Shown piece after piece: positions 774 through 3,443 of a DNA stretch of 64,000 nucleotides. Under the pieces are notes generated by a model. The model saw nothing but the letters and a program-made list of their open reading frames with translations, searched no databases and was not told where the DNA came from. The DNA lies in contig DATCYW010000017.1 of the NCBI GenBank assembly GCA_036526255.1, forward strand, positions 8,675 through 72,674, given 5' to 3'. How positions within the stretch are numbered: position 1 is the first letter of the stretch; each line of letters starts with the position of its first letter. The stretch is from Malonomonas sp. (lineage in GTDB: Bacteria > Desulfobacterota > Desulfuromonadia > Desulfuromonadales > Geopsychrobacteraceae). The position numbers were made by a program, and so were the translations under genes.

Positions 774-803
774 TTGACATCAAAAGCCTCGTGTCCTTAC
801 TAT
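774..803 (+). promoter_or_regulatory. Sigma70-type promoter for tRNA-Ile2
   Basis: TTGACA (774-779), 18 nt spacer, TACTAT (798-803), 14 nt upstream of the tRNA. Confidence 0.75.
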
Positions 804-817
804 GTTCGCTTGCGTGA

Positions 818-894
818 GGGCCTATAGCTCAGTTGGTTAGAGCCGCCGGCTCATAACCGGCTGGTCCCAGGTTCGAGTCCTGGTGGGCCCACCA
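818..894 (+). tRNA. ileX: tRNA-Ile2 (anticodon CAT, lysidine-modified type)
   Basis: 77-nt cloverleaf GGGCCTA...TGGGCCC-A-CCA; T-loop TTCGAGT; anticodon arm GCCGG-CTCATAA-CCGGC. C4:G69 and C5:G68 pairs (TilS determinants) and position after rpoD favour Ile2 over Met. Confidence 0.9.
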
Positions 895-937
895 AGATAA
901 ACCCACGGCGACCTAACAGTTGCTGTAACTCAGGCAG

Positions 938-1086
938 ATGTGTTGACGGCAGATAATCGAAAGACAGCGATACCGCATCCACTGGAAGGTCATTTGGAAT
1001 GCGGACACATAGCGGCAGCGACCGCTACAGGTGAAAACCAGATAAGACGAGAGTGTACCGGGGAACCGGTGCACTCTTTCTTTTTG
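938..1086 (+). ncRNA. Candidate structured RNA of unknown family in the tRNA 3' trailer / nif3 leader
   Basis: Nested stems ATGTGT/ACACAT, CCGCAT/ATGCGG, AGCGG/CCGCT and GGT-GAAA-ACC, followed by a terminator; no plausible sense ORF. Confidence 0.4.
1050..1086 (+). terminator. Intrinsic terminator 13 nt before the nif3 start
   Basis: AGAGTGTACCGG-GGAA-CCGGTGCACTCT (12 bp, one G-U pair) followed by TTCTTTTTG. Confidence 0.75.
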
Positions 1087-1099
1087 TCGGGGGGCGCGC

Positions 1100-2257
1100 G
1101 TGGCAAGAGCTAAAAGCCTGCAGCTATCGGGCCTGGTAGGCCTTCTCAACAGTCTTTGCCCGCCGGGGTTGGCGGAAGATTGGGACAATGTCGGCCTGCA
1201 ACTTGGTGATCCGACCGCAGAAATTACCCGCGTGCTAGTCTGTCTTGACGCTGAAGAACTCGCCATCAGCGAAGCCGAACGGCTCGGCGCACAGGCGGTC
1301 ATCTCTCACCACCCGCTGCTGCATCGACCCCTCAAACGACTGACCCCCGGTGACGAAACCGGCCGCGTGATCTTTCGGGCCATCCGCAATGAGATCGCAA
1401 TCCTGAGCGCACACACCAACCTAGATCGCGTCGCCGACGGCCTGAACGACTGGCTGGCGCAGCGCATCGGGCTGATCGAGTTTAAGCCGCTGGAAGCACC
1501 ACAGGCGGGCAACTGCTACAAGCTGGTGGTGTTTGTCCCGCAGGGGCATGAGCTCGAGGTACTGGACGCCATTTTTGCCGCAGGTGGCGGCCAGGTTGGT
1601 GCTTACGACCGTTGCTCCTTCCGCAGCGTCGGAACCGGCAGCTTTCGTGGTAATGAGACAACCAGTCCGTTTATCGGCCAGCCGGGCGCCAGCGAGGAAA
1701 CTCAGGAGTTGCGGCTGGAAACCATCGTCCCCGGCGATCTGCTGCAGAAGGTCGTTGCCCGGATGATCAAAGCGCACCCCTACGAAGAGGTTGCCTACGA
1801 TCTGATTCCGCTGGCTAACCGGCGCAGCGATGTCGGTTTGGGGCGCATCGGCAGACTTGAGCAGCCGCTCAGTCTGCAGGATTTTGCCGAACAGGTGCGC
1901 CAACAGCTGCAGGTGCCGGCGTTACGAATGGTCGGCGAGCCGCAGCGACAGATCAGCAAGGTCGCAGTCTGCGGAGGCAGTGGCGCTTCCCTGATTGGCG
2001 ATGCTCTGCGCCAGGGGGCCGATTGTCTGGTCACTGGCGATGTGAAATATCACGATGCCCAGCGCGCCCGCTCCGAGGGGCTGGCGTTGATCGATGCCGG
2101 GCACTTTGCAACAGAACATTTAATGGTGACAGAGCTTTCTGCCCGTTTGCAGAAAGCTGCCGATGCGCGGCAGTTACCGGTCGAGTTTATCGAGATGACA
2201 GCAGAGCAGGACCCGTTTACAACGGTCTGCTTCAGTCACAAACCCAGCCAGAAATGA
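1100..2257 (+). CDS. Nif3-like dinuclear metal centre protein (DUF34/YqfO type, with PII-like insert)
   Basis: 'AEDWDNVGLQLG', 'ISHHPL', 'HTNLD', insert 'YKLVVFVP...HPYEEVAYD', 'TGDVKYH', 'DAGHFATE'; GTG start. Confidence 0.95.
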   Translation: MARAKSLQLSGLVGLLNSLCPPGLAEDWDNVGLQLGDPTAEITRVLVCLDAEELAISEAERLGAQAVISHHPLLHRPLKRLTPGDETGRVIFRAIRNEIAILSAHTNLDRVADGLNDWLAQRIGLIEFKPLEAPQAGNCYKLVVFVPQGHELEVLDAIFAAGGGQVGAYDRCSFRSVGTGSFRGNETTSPFIGQPGASEETQELRLETIVPGDLLQKVVARMIKAHPYEEVAYDLIPLANRRSDVGLGRIGRLEQPLSLQDFAEQVRQQLQVPALRMVGEPQRQISKVAVCGGSGASLIGDALRQGADCLVTGDVKYHDAQRARSEGLALIDAGHFATEHLMVTELSARLQKAADARQLPVEFIEMTAEQDPFTTVCFSHKPSQK

Positions 2258-2269
2258 TGGAGGCATAAC

Positions 2270-2980
2270 GTGCAAGACAAGATGAACCTGCTGAGGGAAC
2301 TTCAGGAGATCGATCAGGAAATCAGTACTATCGAGGAAACCCGTCAGGGCTATCAGGATGAATTGGCCGTTTTTGGCAGCGATGCTGCCCGGGTGCAGGC
2401 GATGCTTGATGAGCTGAACGAGGAGTTGAGTGCTCTCCAGCAGGAGGAATCCCTGCTGCAGCAGCAGATGCTCAAGGAGCGCGACAACGTCGCCAAGGTT
2501 GAAAGCCGCCTGCCGGAGATTCAGACGCAGAAAGAGTATGTCGCAGTCCTTAAAGAGATCGACATGGCGAAAAAAGCCAACAAAGATCTGAATGAGAAAC
2601 TGCAGGCAAAACAGCTGGAGATTGCTGCTCTGCAACAGGACCAGCAGGAAAAAGAGCAGGAGCTGGGTGCTCTTACCGAAAAGGCTGAAGCCCGTGGTTC
2701 CGAGCTGACTGCGCTGATGAGTGAAAGCGAAACAGTTCTGGTGAAACGCAAGGAGACTCGCGCAGCGGTTGCCAAGGATGTGCCGGGCTCGATACTGCGC
2801 CAATACCAGATGCTGTACAAGCGGCGCGGTGGCCTGGCTCTGGTGCTGGCCCGCAATGGCGCTTGTCTGGGCTGCAATATGCAGTTGCCGCCACAACAGT
2901 ACAACAGCCTGTTGCGGGTTGCCGATCTGCAATCCTGCCCGCATTGCAACCGTTTGCTGTACGTCGAGCGCGAAGTTTAA
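2270..2980 (+). CDS. Coiled-coil protein with C-terminal C4 zinc ribbon (DUF164 family)
   Basis: Long heptad-rich region, then 'CLGCNMQLPPQ...CPHCNRLLY'; typical nif3 neighbour. Confidence 0.9.
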   Translation: MQDKMNLLRELQEIDQEISTIEETRQGYQDELAVFGSDAARVQAMLDELNEELSALQQEESLLQQQMLKERDNVAKVESRLPEIQTQKEYVAVLKEIDMAKKANKDLNEKLQAKQLEIAALQQDQQEKEQELGALTEKAEARGSELTALMSESETVLVKRKETRAAVAKDVPGSILRQYQMLYKRRGGLALVLARNGACLGCNMQLPPQQYNSLLRVADLQSCPHCNRLLYVEREV

Positions 2981-2990
2981 AGAGAACGCT

Positions 2991-3391
2991 GGTCAAAGAA
3001 GGACAGGTGATCGCCGGTCCACCGGCTTCGTGCCAAGGTGGACGGGAGGAAAGTCCGGGCTCCGCAGGACAGGATGGTCCCTAACGGGGACCGGGGGTGA
3101 CCCCAGGGAAAGTGCCACAGAGAGAAGACCGCCCGTCGCTGCCTTTGGTAGCAGCGGGTAAGGGTGAAAGGGTGAGGTAAGAGCTCACCAGTTCCGGCGG
3201 TGACGTTGGAAGCTCGGTAAACCCCATCCGGAGCAAGACCGAATAGGGGAACGTTTGAGGACGGTCCGTCCGAAGTTCCCGGGTCTGGTTGCTTGAGGCC
3301 GTTGGCAACAGCGGTCCTAGATGAATGATCATCGCCCCGCAGCGGGTAACTTCTGCGGGGAACAAAACCCGGCTTACGGACTTCTTTGGCC
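2991..3391 (+). ncRNA. rnpB: RNase P RNA, bacterial type A
   Basis: 'GAGGAAAGTCCGGGC', 'AGTGCCACAGAGA', 'GGTAAACCCC', 'AACAAAACCCGGCTTA'; terminal P1 pairing GGTCAAAGAAG/CTTCTTTGGCC. Confidence 0.97.
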
Positions 3392-3443
3392 ATTTTTTTC
3401 CGGCAGTACGACTTGTAGTCGTACTGCCGTATTTTTGAGAGCT

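Follow-up and report, generated by a model that had tools for sequence, protein, structure and literature searches.

Genes and features of the tRNA-nif3 spacer

The segment at positions 895 to 1,099 of a 64-kb stretch of Malonomonas sp. DNA (64,000 nucleotides, hereafter the window) lies between a tRNA gene and nif3 (Table 1). The tRNA has a CAU anticodon, and its best full-length Escherichia coli match is annotated tRNA-Ile. A preliminary description made by reading the letters had named this gene tRNA-Ile2 and had placed nif3, a zinc-ribbon gene and rnpB around it; all four assignments were borne out by ARAGORN, Pfam and Rfam. The dnaG-rpoD-tRNA-nif3-DUF164 synteny has already been published (PMC3372290), and rnpB lies downstream in 17 of the 18 related loci that we scanned. 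The promoter-like site upstream of the tRNA corresponds in position to TTGACA-17-TAATGT in the Pelovirga locus L012.

Translation of nif3 starts with GTG at 1100 behind a GGGGGG Shine-Dalgarno sequence (1089-1094), and orthologues align from residue 1. In the window, the gap between this start codon and the end of the T run of the preceding terminator is 13 nt; across all relatives it is 10-45 nt. There is no room for a promoter belonging to nif3 itself, suggesting that the gene is expressed through read-through alone. At locus L006 an inserted gene pair splits off the tRNA, and the leader and terminator remain before nif3, behind a promoter-like site. The segment is best explained as both the 3′ trailer of tRNA-Ile2(CAU) and the 5′ leader of nif3 and the zinc-ribbon gene, and it probably serves rnpB as a 5′ leader as well.

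Table 1. Features of the tRNA-nif3-rnpB region, in window coordinates
Feature	Position	Strand	Basis
Putative sigma-70-type promoter-like site upstream of the tRNA, TTGACA-18-TACTAT	774-803	+	Consensus scan, 10/12 matches
tRNA gene, CAT anticodon, tRNA-Ile2 type, CCA encoded	818-894	+	ARAGORN; Rfam tRNA, 69 bits
A/U-rich single-stranded linker past the CCA end, consensus UUAACC	895-904	+	Alignment consensus
P1 hairpin, ACGGCGAC / GUUGCUGU, 8 bp including two G-U, loop CUAACA	905-926	+	-9.1 kcal/mol; in centroid fold
CS1 block: AGG (932-934), GTG 940 / TTG 943, GATAATCG (952-959)	929-960	+	Alignment conservation
Putative leader ORF, 57 codons from GTG 940 or 56 from TTG 943	940-1113	+	ORF list
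P3 hairpin, CCGCATCCA/TGGAATGCGG, one bulged A on the 3′ strand	973-1004	+	-10.9 kcal/mol
P4 hairpin, AGCGG / CCGCU, hexaloop	1011-1026	+	-6.4 kcal/mol
CS2, purine-rich unpaired linker, consensus GGGGAGAACCAGAUAA	1027-1048	+	Sequence conserved
Intrinsic terminator: 13-bp hairpin with GGAA loop (1049-1078), then UUUCUUUUUG	1049-1086	+	Terminator scan
nif3 (DUF34/NIF3 protein, 385 aa)	1100-2257	+	Pfam PF01784, 289 bits
Coiled-coil / C4 zinc-ribbon protein (DUF164, FlgZ/CT398 type)	2270-2980	+	Pfam PF02591
rnpB, bacterial RNase P RNA class A	2995-3391	+	Rfam RF00010, 308.7 bits
rnpB terminator	3401-3437	+	Terminator scan

A conserved intrinsic terminator precedes nif3

The spacer ends in an intrinsic terminator whose stem contains seven G-C pairs below a 4-nt loop (-23.3 kcal/mol) and is followed by TCTTTTTG, the T run extending to 1086. 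The hairpin, its GGAA loop and the end of the T run agree with the preliminary description; the stem is one pair longer than the 12 bp from 1050 given there. Across 27 orthologous spacers the terminator was paired in 94% of cells, and the base of its stem, GAGUGYA/UGCACUC, is kept order-wide. The window form of this stem base (GAGUGCA/UGCACUC) is present in a single copy in the 64 kb, against a chance expectation of 0, and the stem base occurs once per locus in 36 loci of Desulfuromonadales and Geobacterales, always upstream of nif3, in the interval that begins at tRNA(CAU). Comparison of 39 distinct versions revealed an identical stem base and a variable top, with AAGA, AAAA, GAGA, AGAA and UGAA loops in relatives, so that the three GNRA tetraloops pointed out in the preliminary description proved not to be conserved. 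A GAACC(A/G)G motif is present twice, in the linker before the terminator and in the hairpin top. In the 3′ arm the nucleotides are identical and the reading frame differs between clades, which argues that the hairpin is selected as RNA and that the open reading frame described below merely passes through it, a pattern that an attenuator would be expected to show.

Two DNA-level readings of the hairpin were considered and rejected. As an operator palindrome for a DNA-binding protein it would have half-sites spaced at 10-15 nt, and its U-G pairs are compatible with the + strand only; as a sigma-54 site, its TTGCA fails on spacing, which shifts with loop length. The rnpB terminator likewise has a stem base that is sequence-conserved within the clade.

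Hairpins and sequence blocks of the spacer body

The whole spacer is more stable than shuffled sequences (z = -4.7; minus strand, -1.75). For the body alone (895-1048) the value is z = -1.2, and nearly all of the whole-spacer signal comes from the terminator. To judge individual helices, we compared pairing in the 27 orthologous spacers with a background obtained with slid partners, which was 25-44% of cells. Six helices had been drawn in the preliminary description, and every base quoted there was found in place: ATGTGT (938-943) and ACACAT (1005-1010), TCGAAAGA (957-964), the two P3 strands with their bulged A, AGCGG/CCGCT (1011-1026) and GGTGAAAACC (1030-1039). Three of the six, P3, P4 and the terminator, are conserved. 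The long-range closing helix ATGTGT/ACACAT (41% of cells), the TC-GAAA-GA hairpin (44%) and the 3-bp GGT-GAAA-ACC hairpin within CS2 (38%) fall within the background. Conservation across the orthologous spacers separated P3 and P4, which show compensatory changes, from ATGTGT/ACACAT, TC/GA and GGT/ACC, which do not rise above chance pairing.

P3 was paired in 64-88% of cells and was found without an imposed structure in the alignment subgroups G1, G2 and G4 and in G1+G2. P4 was paired in 64-67%, with compensatory changes in every pair, and was recovered in G1, G2 and G1+G2. A further hairpin, P1, has compensatory changes in 7 of 7 modelled pairs, is paired in 67% of cells, and was recovered by RNAalifold in subgroups and in a 13-sequence MAFFT alignment. 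RNAalifold over all 22 or 27 sequences returned the terminator and no consensus for the body; the body hairpins accordingly rest on subgroup folds, with structure-conservation indices (SCI) of 0.3-0.47, and on pair counts. The preliminary description does not mention P1 (905-926), either of the conserved sequence blocks or the open reading frame.

In CS1, AGGC and TTGA are close to invariant. We read this block as a candidate weak Shine-Dalgarno sequence, start codon and first codons of a leader ORF; a UUAGGC/GCUUAA pairing is possible there in relatives (about 70% of cells) and not in the window. The single-stranded linker at 895-904 may be an endonuclease site.

Several other identities for the body were rejected. 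A promoter inside CS1 (AGGC-N17-GATAAT), considered since metatranscriptome contig X24 begins at 971, would have a poor -35 element (TCAGGC/TTAGGC); GATAAT is lost in the Pelovirga group, and the L012 contigs traverse CS1 without starting there. Sigma-54 (GG-N10-GC) and sigma-28 (GCCGATAA) readings of CS1 fail on spacing, which varies by 1 nt. The motifs required for ANTAR-type double hexaloop hairpins and for CsrA GGA sites are not conserved, and the spacer has no match to the Rfam tRNA model that would mark it as a degenerate tRNA or tRNA-like remnant.

The spacer could also act as a riboswitch or as a leader to which a protein (Nif3 or the zinc-ribbon protein) binds, the terminator being switched in response to a ligand. 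Its position before nif3 and its conserved hairpins would suit such a role, and a protein might bind the terminator stem, whose sequence is conserved. The preliminary description had recognized no known riboswitch family, and Rfam agreed: segment 895-1099 gave no match at E up to 10, rtT RNA (RF00391) included, and the spacers of 18 related loci gave none at gathering thresholds. Duplexes between upstream sequence and either terminator arm had energies not above those of shuffles in 27 members, and neither antiterminator nor anti-antiterminator pairing was found. Outside the terminator only three columns are invariant among 22 sequences, with no invariant junction nucleotides, unlike an aptamer core, and the body is absent from short-spacer sister lineages that retain the terminator and nif3. 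We therefore regard a ligand- or protein-switched leader as very improbable. Of the attenuator suggested in the preliminary description, the general idea of a terminator gating read-through into nif3 holds up, and its ligand-sensing form does not.

An open reading frame runs through the terminator

The putative leader ORF spans P3, P4 and the entire terminator and ends at a TAA (1111-1113) 11 nt past the first base of the nif3 start codon. Its putative start is weak, an invariant TTG behind a 3-nt Shine-Dalgarno sequence; AGG lies 8-9 nt upstream of the TTG in most members, and most G1/G2 members have no in-frame start codon upstream of the TTG. In eight of ten lineage representatives this frame contains no stop over 37 codons (P about 0.12 each), and stop totals over the three frames are 13/68/43, lowest in the ORF frame. 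A column-permutation test gave six stops in the ORF frame versus 58 and 37 in the other two, which behaved as permuted (P = 0.001); like all P values for this ORF, this one is too optimistic, as the lineages counted are related. Seventeen members have 108 nt between the TTG and the hairpin and four have 111 or 102 nt, all indels being multiples of 3, a length constraint that the hairpins alone might impose. Variability peaks at the third codon position (entropy 0.84/0.94/1.15, P = 0.007). Among sense frames, BLOSUM similarity exceeds a random-placement null in the ORF frame only (z = 2.1, 2.7 and 3.4); the antisense frame with shared third positions gives an equal BLOSUM signal (z = 3.5), yet it contains more stops (13 versus 6). 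The excess of synonymous changes is not significant (27 observed versus 21.2 +/- 4.1, P = 0.11).

In most lineages the ORF ends on the nif3 start, as ATGA, TGATG or TAATG, or 5-11 nt past its first base. The hairpin-crossing layout is shared by G1, G2a, G3, L007 and the Geobacter types, and in the short spacers of the Geobacter type an ATG-initiated ORF of 29-41 codons crosses the hairpin in 11 of 11 cases, versus about 49% of shuffles. In the Desulfuromusa subclade (G2b) the frame is closed by a TAG 12 nt short of the hairpin, in the Pelovirga group the hairpin is out of frame with CS1 (112/115 nt), and two short-spacer groups have no hairpin-crossing ORF. Overall, the alignments argue with moderate strength that the leader ORF is maintained by selection.

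All of this frame evidence would fit equally a small protein of 32-57 aa with a function of its own, the hairpin being an internal structure or weak terminator, and short stretches of the peptide, such as LPDIEP in the Desulfuromusa group, are conserved through synonymous changes. We consider such a protein very unlikely: subgroups have hardly any of the peptide in common, its C-terminal third is read in different frames from clade to clade and is truncated in one, and the non-synonymous/synonymous ratio is near neutral. Codon use in the window ORF is atypical, AUA accounting for 3 of 3 isoleucine codons versus 1 of 46 in neighbouring genes. No homologues of the leader peptide were found in Pfam or NCBIfam, and no gene-caller product resembling it in a collection of 5.8 billion proteins. 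P3 pairing is preserved despite non-conservative amino-acid changes (Q/R/W), which argues that RNA structure outweighs the peptide. An AUA-sensing leader peptide was rejected as a general function; AUA is absent in-frame from many relatives and equally frequent in frame 1.

Transcripts cross the terminator

Assembled metatranscriptome contigs, which carry neither strand information nor true depth, provided RNA evidence. One contig matches window positions 971-1148 with 0 mismatches and crosses the terminator into nif3; it is the sole organism-specific contig in 12 kb, the other matches being short pieces of the conserved rpoD and rnpB. In the Pelovirga locus L012, contigs from six runs cross the hairpin into nif3, and L009 contributed one further terminator-crossing contig. 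L101 had no RNA runs on record, and the organism of L106/L010 was not found in the salt-lake RNA runs. Co-transcription with the tRNA, which the preliminary description had proposed, is seen in one relative, where L012 contig 2680-2897 joins tRNA and trailer. The same locus yielded a 5′-processed tRNA with a trailer of at least 140 nt at a depth of 68, versus 21 and 8.4 for its neighbours. Across the terminator, depth falls from 68 to 8.4 in X35 and is flat at 6.07 in X38, contig data being blind to 3′ ends. Several L012 contigs are interrupted in the counterpart of the CS2 linker, between P4 and the hairpin (ends at 2897/2902, starts at 2923/2925), a pattern that is compatible with cleavage, if only suggestive of it.

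Most of this RNA evidence comes from the Pelovirga clade, in which the ORF frame is broken, yet there the terminator is crossed and the processed tRNA-trailer species is abundant. This speaks for a different account, in which the spacer is untranslated and structured, the terminator is constitutively leaky, and purine-rich composition and fixed helix geometry happen to leave the frame open. Linkers would be cut by endonuclease, as the L012 breaks between P4 and the hairpin might reflect, P1, P3 and P4 would block exonucleases, and the terminator would simply cut down the transcription that reaches nif3 from a strong tRNA promoter. The compensatory changes in these three hairpins, the retention of P3 pairing at the expense of amino-acid changes and the non-significant synonymous excess all point the same way, and the conserved stem of the rnpB terminator indicates that conserved terminators of stable RNAs need no special mechanism. 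What such a spacer leaves unexplained is the depletion of stops in one frame, the multiple-of-three indels, the three-base periodicity and the end of the ORF on the nif3 start; moreover, for a structured RNA the body is no more stable than shuffles, has no RNAalifold consensus in 27 sequences and reaches low SCI values even in subgroups. We judge this account unlikely, although it is the alternative that we take most seriously.

The abundant trailer and the linker breaks would also be compatible with a trans-acting small RNA, either the trailer or CS2 plus hairpin and U tail, cut from the tRNA precursor and acting on other RNAs or an RNA chaperone. Functional RNAs are known from tRNA 3′ trailers, namely 3′ETS-leuZ of the E. 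coli glyW-cysT-leuZ operon and rtT RNA of the tyrT operon. Like them, the spacer is co-transcribed with a tRNA, is structured and lies between the last tRNA and the intrinsic terminator of the unit, here with a long U tail, and a trailer species accumulates in L012; the conserved, unpaired, purine-rich linker and the repetition of GAACC(A/G)G in linker and hairpin top also count in favour. The spacer differs from 3′ETS-leuZ, which is about 50 nt long, in its length of about 190 nt, and from both RNAs in that its terminator is directly followed by a gene dependent on read-through. No discrete small species appeared in the libraries used, which are of a kind that misses small RNAs, no target or complementary partner was identified and no second copy was found in the window or the loci, the element in L006 stays with nif3 and not with the tRNA, and the reading-frame pattern would be left unexplained. 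A function in trans is therefore improbable in our estimation.

A translation-coupled attenuator is the preferred explanation

The absence of an antiterminator, together with a frame open through the terminator, points away from a riboswitch or an independent small RNA and towards ribosome-dependent attenuation. Our preferred, still tentative explanation is an attenuator of the pyrBI kind, with the terminator suppressed by a ribosome that translates the leader ORF. Transcription would start at the tRNA promoter (774-803) or read in from rpoD, and an RNase P-type cut would free the 5′ end of the tRNA. The RNA downstream would form P1 and then expose a weak ribosome-binding site and start (AGG 932-934, GTG 940/TTG 943), from which the 56-57-codon ORF would cross P3, P4, the purine-rich linker and the whole terminator. 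Behind a polymerase with no ribosome close by, the hairpin would form and transcription would end at about 1086, giving a tRNA precursor. With a ribosome following closely, the 5′ arm of the hairpin would be covered, termination would fail and nif3 would be transcribed; the ribosome on the ORF would then terminate on the nif3 start and could re-initiate there. Leader translation and its effect on termination are inferred; as the physiological signal, our best guess would be how tightly transcription and translation are coupled in general. P3 and P4 could, speculatively, act as pause hairpins.

The terminator of the E. coli pyrBI attenuator is contained in a leader-peptide gene of 135 bp, and a ribosome following closely suppresses it (PMC4824070). 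The nif3 leader resembles pyrBI in that the terminator is a few nucleotides upstream of the regulated gene, the ORF runs through the terminator (174 bp here), no competing RNA antiterminator is present and read-through would be expected to need a closely following ribosome. The two are unrelated in sequence, and the start codon here is TTG/GTG. In place of the U-rich, UTP-sensitive pause tract of pyrBI, a purine-rich stretch of 22 nt (GGUGAAAACCAGAUAAGACGA) precedes the hairpin. The leader is also a tRNA trailer, and the genes downstream are nif3, the DUF164 zinc-ribbon gene and rnpB, not pyrimidine genes.

Transcription units that join tRNAs with protein genes (thrU-tyrU-glyT-thrT-tufB) or contain an internal terminator (rpsU-dnaG-rpoD) are familiar from other work. 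They share with the present locus a tRNA and a protein gene on one transcript, or an internal partial terminator that sets the product ratio, and they differ from it in having no conserved, structured, ORF-bearing leader of 150 nt between tRNA and gene. A variant of the pyrBI attenuator is found at pyrE/rph, where the ORF stops just before the hairpin; the Desulfuromusa subclade, with its stop 12 nt before the hairpin, presumably resembles this pyrE arrangement.

If the leader ORF is translated, the rare pyrBI design, a terminator within a leader ORF governed by ribosome proximity alone, would be represented by a second, unrelated locus, found in Desulfuromonadia, built into the trailer of a tRNA gene and controlling genes for Nif3/DUF34, the DUF164 zinc-ribbon protein and the RNase P ribozyme. 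The published rpoD-tRNA-nif3-DUF164-rnpB synteny would then be accounted for by a single transcription unit that contains a valve. Without translation of the ORF, the spacer would be a tRNA trailer of an ordinary kind, structured, specific to the clade and ending in a leaky terminator. A region that resembles a structured non-coding RNA by eye and by covariation counts can also bear a reading-frame signature, and such leaders escape both motif-discovery pipelines that discard ORFs and gene callers that drop 55-codon ORFs with TTG starts.

A more specific version of the attenuator, which we put forward as a long shot, would make the leader ORF a sensor, through which the tRNA-Ile2 unit gauges whether translation keeps pace with transcription and sets the synthesis of Nif3, the DUF164 zinc-ribbon protein and RNase P RNA accordingly. 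Were this true, it would amount to feedback between tRNA supply or processing and translation and would give the Nif3/DUF164 pair a testable physiological context. In a related reading, the long trailer may keep the 5′-matured tRNA-Ile2 unchargeable until TilS has made lysidine; TilS reportedly acts on precursors, in work from 2009 by Nakanishi et al. In the window lineage, the leader ORF might even be a gauge of AUA decoding, and one of its AUA codons lies in a rare-looking run, AUA-AGA-CGA, just before the hairpin.

Genetic context of the tRNA–nif3 spacer

The gene order dnaG–rpoD–tRNA(CAU)–nif3–DUF164, at times extended by the RNase P RNA gene, is an already published neighbourhood (PMC3372290), and in a Nif3 genome scan tRNA(CAT) was found upstream of nif3 in 39 of 41 Desulfuromonadales/Geobacterales loci. 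The name tRNA-Ile2 used in the preliminary description of the window is consistent with the top full-length E. coli match of this tRNA, which is annotated tRNA-Ile.

Features of the rpoD–rnpB region, in window positions
Feature	Position	Remark
rpoD, 3′ part	start of window to 740	
Promoter-like site	774–803	between rpoD and tRNA gene
tRNA gene	818–894	CAT anticodon
Spacer (leader)	895–1099	205 nt, + strand
Body	895–1048	spacer minus terminator
Hairpin P1	905–926	
Conserved block CS1	929–960	
Leader ORF	GTG 940 or TTG 943 to TAA 1111–1113	ends 11 nt past first base of nif3 GTG
Hairpin P3	973–1004	
Hairpin P4	1011–1026	
Conserved linker CS2	1027–1048	purine-rich
Terminator	1049–1086	hairpin to 1078, then T run
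nif3	GTG 1100 to 2257	
Coiled-coil zinc-ribbon gene	2270–2980	
rnpB	2995–3391	
rnpB terminator	3401–3437	also delimited as 3401–3429

Only 13 nt separate the U tract of the spacer terminator from the nif3 start in the window, and 10–45 nt in other loci, which leaves space for a Shine–Dalgarno sequence but none for a promoter. At locus L006, a gene pair encoding an exosortase (PF09721) and a DUF3485 protein is inserted after tRNA(CAU) and before the leader (L006 1000–3000); the tRNA has gained a new terminator, and the leader and its hairpin are retained before nif3, preceded by a promoter-like TTGACA site. At this locus the only route to nif3 leads through the hairpin. A stretch resembling the 3′ half of the tRNA lies ahead of the retained leader, which suggests that the tRNA region was duplicated. 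Taken together, the short gap and the L006 arrangement argue for read-through into nif3.

The layout varies elsewhere. One Thermodesulfobacteriota MAG (L020 1512–1700) has the tRNA–nif3 order with a 187-nt spacer that contains no GAGUGCA hairpin and no similarity to the leader family. A complete Geobacter-like metagenome-assembled genome (L112 1686–3619) has efp (elongation factor P), not rpoD, ahead of nif3, with a gap of 250 nt. Desulfuromusa-type loci (L003 810–848, L084, L111, L099 and L109) carry 40–80 extra nt with their own hairpins between the tRNA and P1, and these insertions are unlike between sublineages.

A terminator with a conserved stem base

The terminator hairpin has 13 bp and a predicted energy of −23.3 kcal/mol and is followed by UCUUUUUG. 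Its stem base, GAGTGYA...TRCACTC, occurs once in the 64-kb window (0 expected by chance) and once per locus in 36 loci, every time between the tRNA and nif3. Across 39 distinct versions of the hairpin, the seven basal pairs are unchanged, as is the U tract, and the stem top and loop vary in sequence and length. The U–G pairs of the terminator and of P3 are compatible with the + strand only. Such conservation is not unique to the spacer, because the rnpB terminator (in the window, L002, L004, L008, L009, L012, L081, L093 and others) also has a sequence-conserved stem base with variable tops, CGGCAG(Y)A...CUGCCG in the clade with long spacers and GCGGCAC...GUGCCGC in the next group; its reach is shorter, and Geobacter-type loci lack such a terminator after rnpB. 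The motif GAACC(A/G)G is present twice in long-type loci (window 1036–1042 and 1063–1069; L010, L093, L011, L022 and others), one copy lying in the linker ahead of the hairpin and the other within the hairpin, in its apical or 3′ part; short-type Desulfuromonadaceae-like loci have the hairpin copy only, and Geobacter types have none.

Leader structure and the case against an RNA switch

The spacer, measured from the tRNA to the hairpin end, comes in two sizes, about 95–112 nt in Geobacter-like and several other lineages and 190–270 nt in a clade of family rank to which the window belongs; the long-type set was extended by a metagenome pattern scan. A covariance model trained on 22 long spacers found 27 full-length members, one per locus, with a sole match in the window (896–1086, 143 bits); in short-spacer loci it recognized only the terminator part.

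Folded against shuffles, the window spacer gave z = −4.7 on the + strand and −1.75 on the − strand, and the body without the terminator gave z = −1.2, so that thermodynamic support is confined to the terminator. RNAalifold likewise recovered the terminator alone from all long spacers. When applied to MAFFT alignments of the long-spacer subgroups with no imposed structure, it returned P1, P3 and P4 independently and in the same order, and a 13-sequence G1+G2 alignment gave exactly these three hairpins. Body-only z-scores against column shuffles were −5.6 (G1), −17.5 (G2) and −2.8 (G4), with better energies on the + strand; structure-conservation indices (SCI) of the subgroups were low, at 0.3–0.47. 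In the model-guided alignment, 76.7% of cells were paired, versus 34–44% with partners slid, and the covariation score was 0.227 versus 0.05–0.095. P1, P3 and P4 are real under every reading considered, and P3 and P4 may act as pause or processing elements. CS1 (AGGCAG-N-TTGA-N-GATAATCG) and CS2 (GGGGAGAACCAGATAA) are conserved in sequence, with unconvincing pairing in the window.

Every string quoted in the preliminary description is present where it was placed. Among its helices, P3 (64–88% paired cells), P4 (67%) and the terminator (94%) held up, but ATGTGT/ACACAT (41%), TC/GA (44%) and GGT/ACC (38%) were at background. The proposal of a structured RNA outside known families agrees with our Rfam search, which gave no match in the window spacer at E up to 10 and none at gathering thresholds in 18 orthologous loci. 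Pairing of upstream RNA with either terminator arm never exceeded that of shuffled upstream RNA in the 27 members and was often weaker; the body has few invariant nucleotides and is missing from sister lineages that retain the terminator and nif3. These three observations speak against both a riboswitch and an attenuator of the classical alternative-hairpin kind. A riboswitch or protein-operated switch, for which the conserved hairpins might speak, is the least probable of the explanations weighed. The original observation is confirmed in part and its interpretation supported in part: the GNRA-rich, riboswitch-like fold is not sustained, and what survives is a conserved leader and attenuator, absent from Rfam and co-transcribed with the tRNA.

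Transcripts across the spacer

RNA evidence came from assembled metatranscriptome contigs, which carry neither strand nor true depth and attest that such molecules exist, not how efficient termination is. One marine-sediment run contained a 178-nt contig identical to window 971–1148, spanning P3, the terminator and the beginning of nif3; no other contig in 12 kb is specific to the organism of the window, the remaining matches being short conserved rpoD and rnpB pieces. At L012, a Pelovirga relative (tRNA 2681–2757, hairpin 2937–2968, nif3 ATG 3001), information came from eight salt-lake runs. A single contig (2471–2763) contains both the 3′ end of rpoD and the tRNA; transcripts of rpoD therefore extend into the tRNA gene despite its own promoter-like site. 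A fragment spanning 2588–2679 has adapters at both ends, and the next contig opens with an adapter at 2680, a pattern expected from an RNase P-type cut; the junction lies 1 nt upstream of the tRNA 5′ end that ARAGORN predicts (2681), which means either that cleavage occurs at −1 or that the tRNA gene model is off by one.

The contig from 2680 comprises the tRNA and a 140-nt trailer ending just past P4, with an assembly depth (not true depth) of 68 versus 21 for rpoD and 8.4 for nif3. Such a trailer could be a small RNA of the 3′ETS type, an improbable account that ranks third. Contigs of six runs cross the L012 hairpin into nif3, and a further contig at L009 extends from the hairpin base into nif3. 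Several hairpin-crossing contigs start at 2923–2947 and two from the trailer stop at 2897/2902; the purine-rich linker may therefore be cleaved. The uneven coverage of the locus favours RNA over contaminating DNA. Loose ends at L012 2734–2763 in runs X38 and X49 belong to a related salt-lake organism, in which the same tRNA(CAU) is followed directly by a second tRNA gene with no trailer.

A reading frame through the terminator

The most distinctive feature of the leader, missed in the preliminary description, is a reading frame. A small-ORF check revealed that in most long spacers the frame of the hairpin codons GAG-UGC stays open for a long way upstream, with 13, 68 and 43 stop codons in the three sense frames (141 nt, 22 sequences). 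Eight of ten lineage representatives have zero stops in 37 codons, versus about 12% of shuffles for each. Six stops were observed in this frame in 17 ungapped sequences, versus 11.4 ± 1.8 under column permutation, which keeps site conservation (P = 0.001), and column entropy at codon positions 1, 2 and 3 was 0.84, 0.94 and 1.15 (P = 0.007), nominal values that are too small because the lineages are related. All six stops are one TAG common to a Desulfuromusa subclade; stop counts of the other two frames were in line with their own permutations. The spacing between the hairpin and the nearly invariant TTG of CS1 is 108 nt in 17 members; two more have 111 nt and another two 102 nt, all differences being multiples of three; the Pelovirga group alone is out of frame (112/115). 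AGG lies 8–9 nt ahead of this TTG, the first in-frame start in most members. The ORFs of relatives end on the nif3 start (ATGA, TGATG or TAATG) or 5 nt past its first base. In Geobacter-type short spacers, an ATG-start ORF of 29–41 codons crosses the hairpin in 11 of 11, versus about 49% of shuffles; two short-spacer groups have no hairpin-crossing ORF.

Pairwise amino-acid similarity exceeded a random-placement null (z = 2.1 close, 2.7 distant, 3.4 pooled) in this sense frame only. A functional small protein is nevertheless a very improbable explanation, ranked fourth: the peptide is barely conserved between subgroups, and no similar peptide was found in the databases searched. Other results fit an untranslated structured spacer with a leaky terminator, which we rank second and consider unlikely. 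The synonymous excess is not significant (27 versus 21.2 ± 4.1), and P3 pairing is retained through Q/R/W replacements. Clades differ in the frame that covers the 3′ arm of the hairpin. The antisense frame that shares third positions has an equal BLOSUM signal, but twice as many stops, spread across many sequences.

We tentatively place first a leader ORF of a translation-coupled attenuator, because the ORF product is nearly free to vary while its openness, length and end are kept, the terminator is crossed and there is no RNA antiterminator. A ribosome on the leader ORF close behind the polymerase would suppress the terminator, in the manner of the textbook case pyrBI, whose terminator is contained in a leader-peptide gene of 135 bp and is suppressed when a ribosome follows the polymerase closely (PMC4824070); in both systems the terminator lies within the leader ORF. 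In a bias not kept in relatives, the leader ORF (940–1113) has AUA at each of its three Ile positions, versus 1 of 46 Ile codons in rpoD, nif3 and the zinc-ribbon gene together, and the tRNA encoded immediately upstream decodes this codon.
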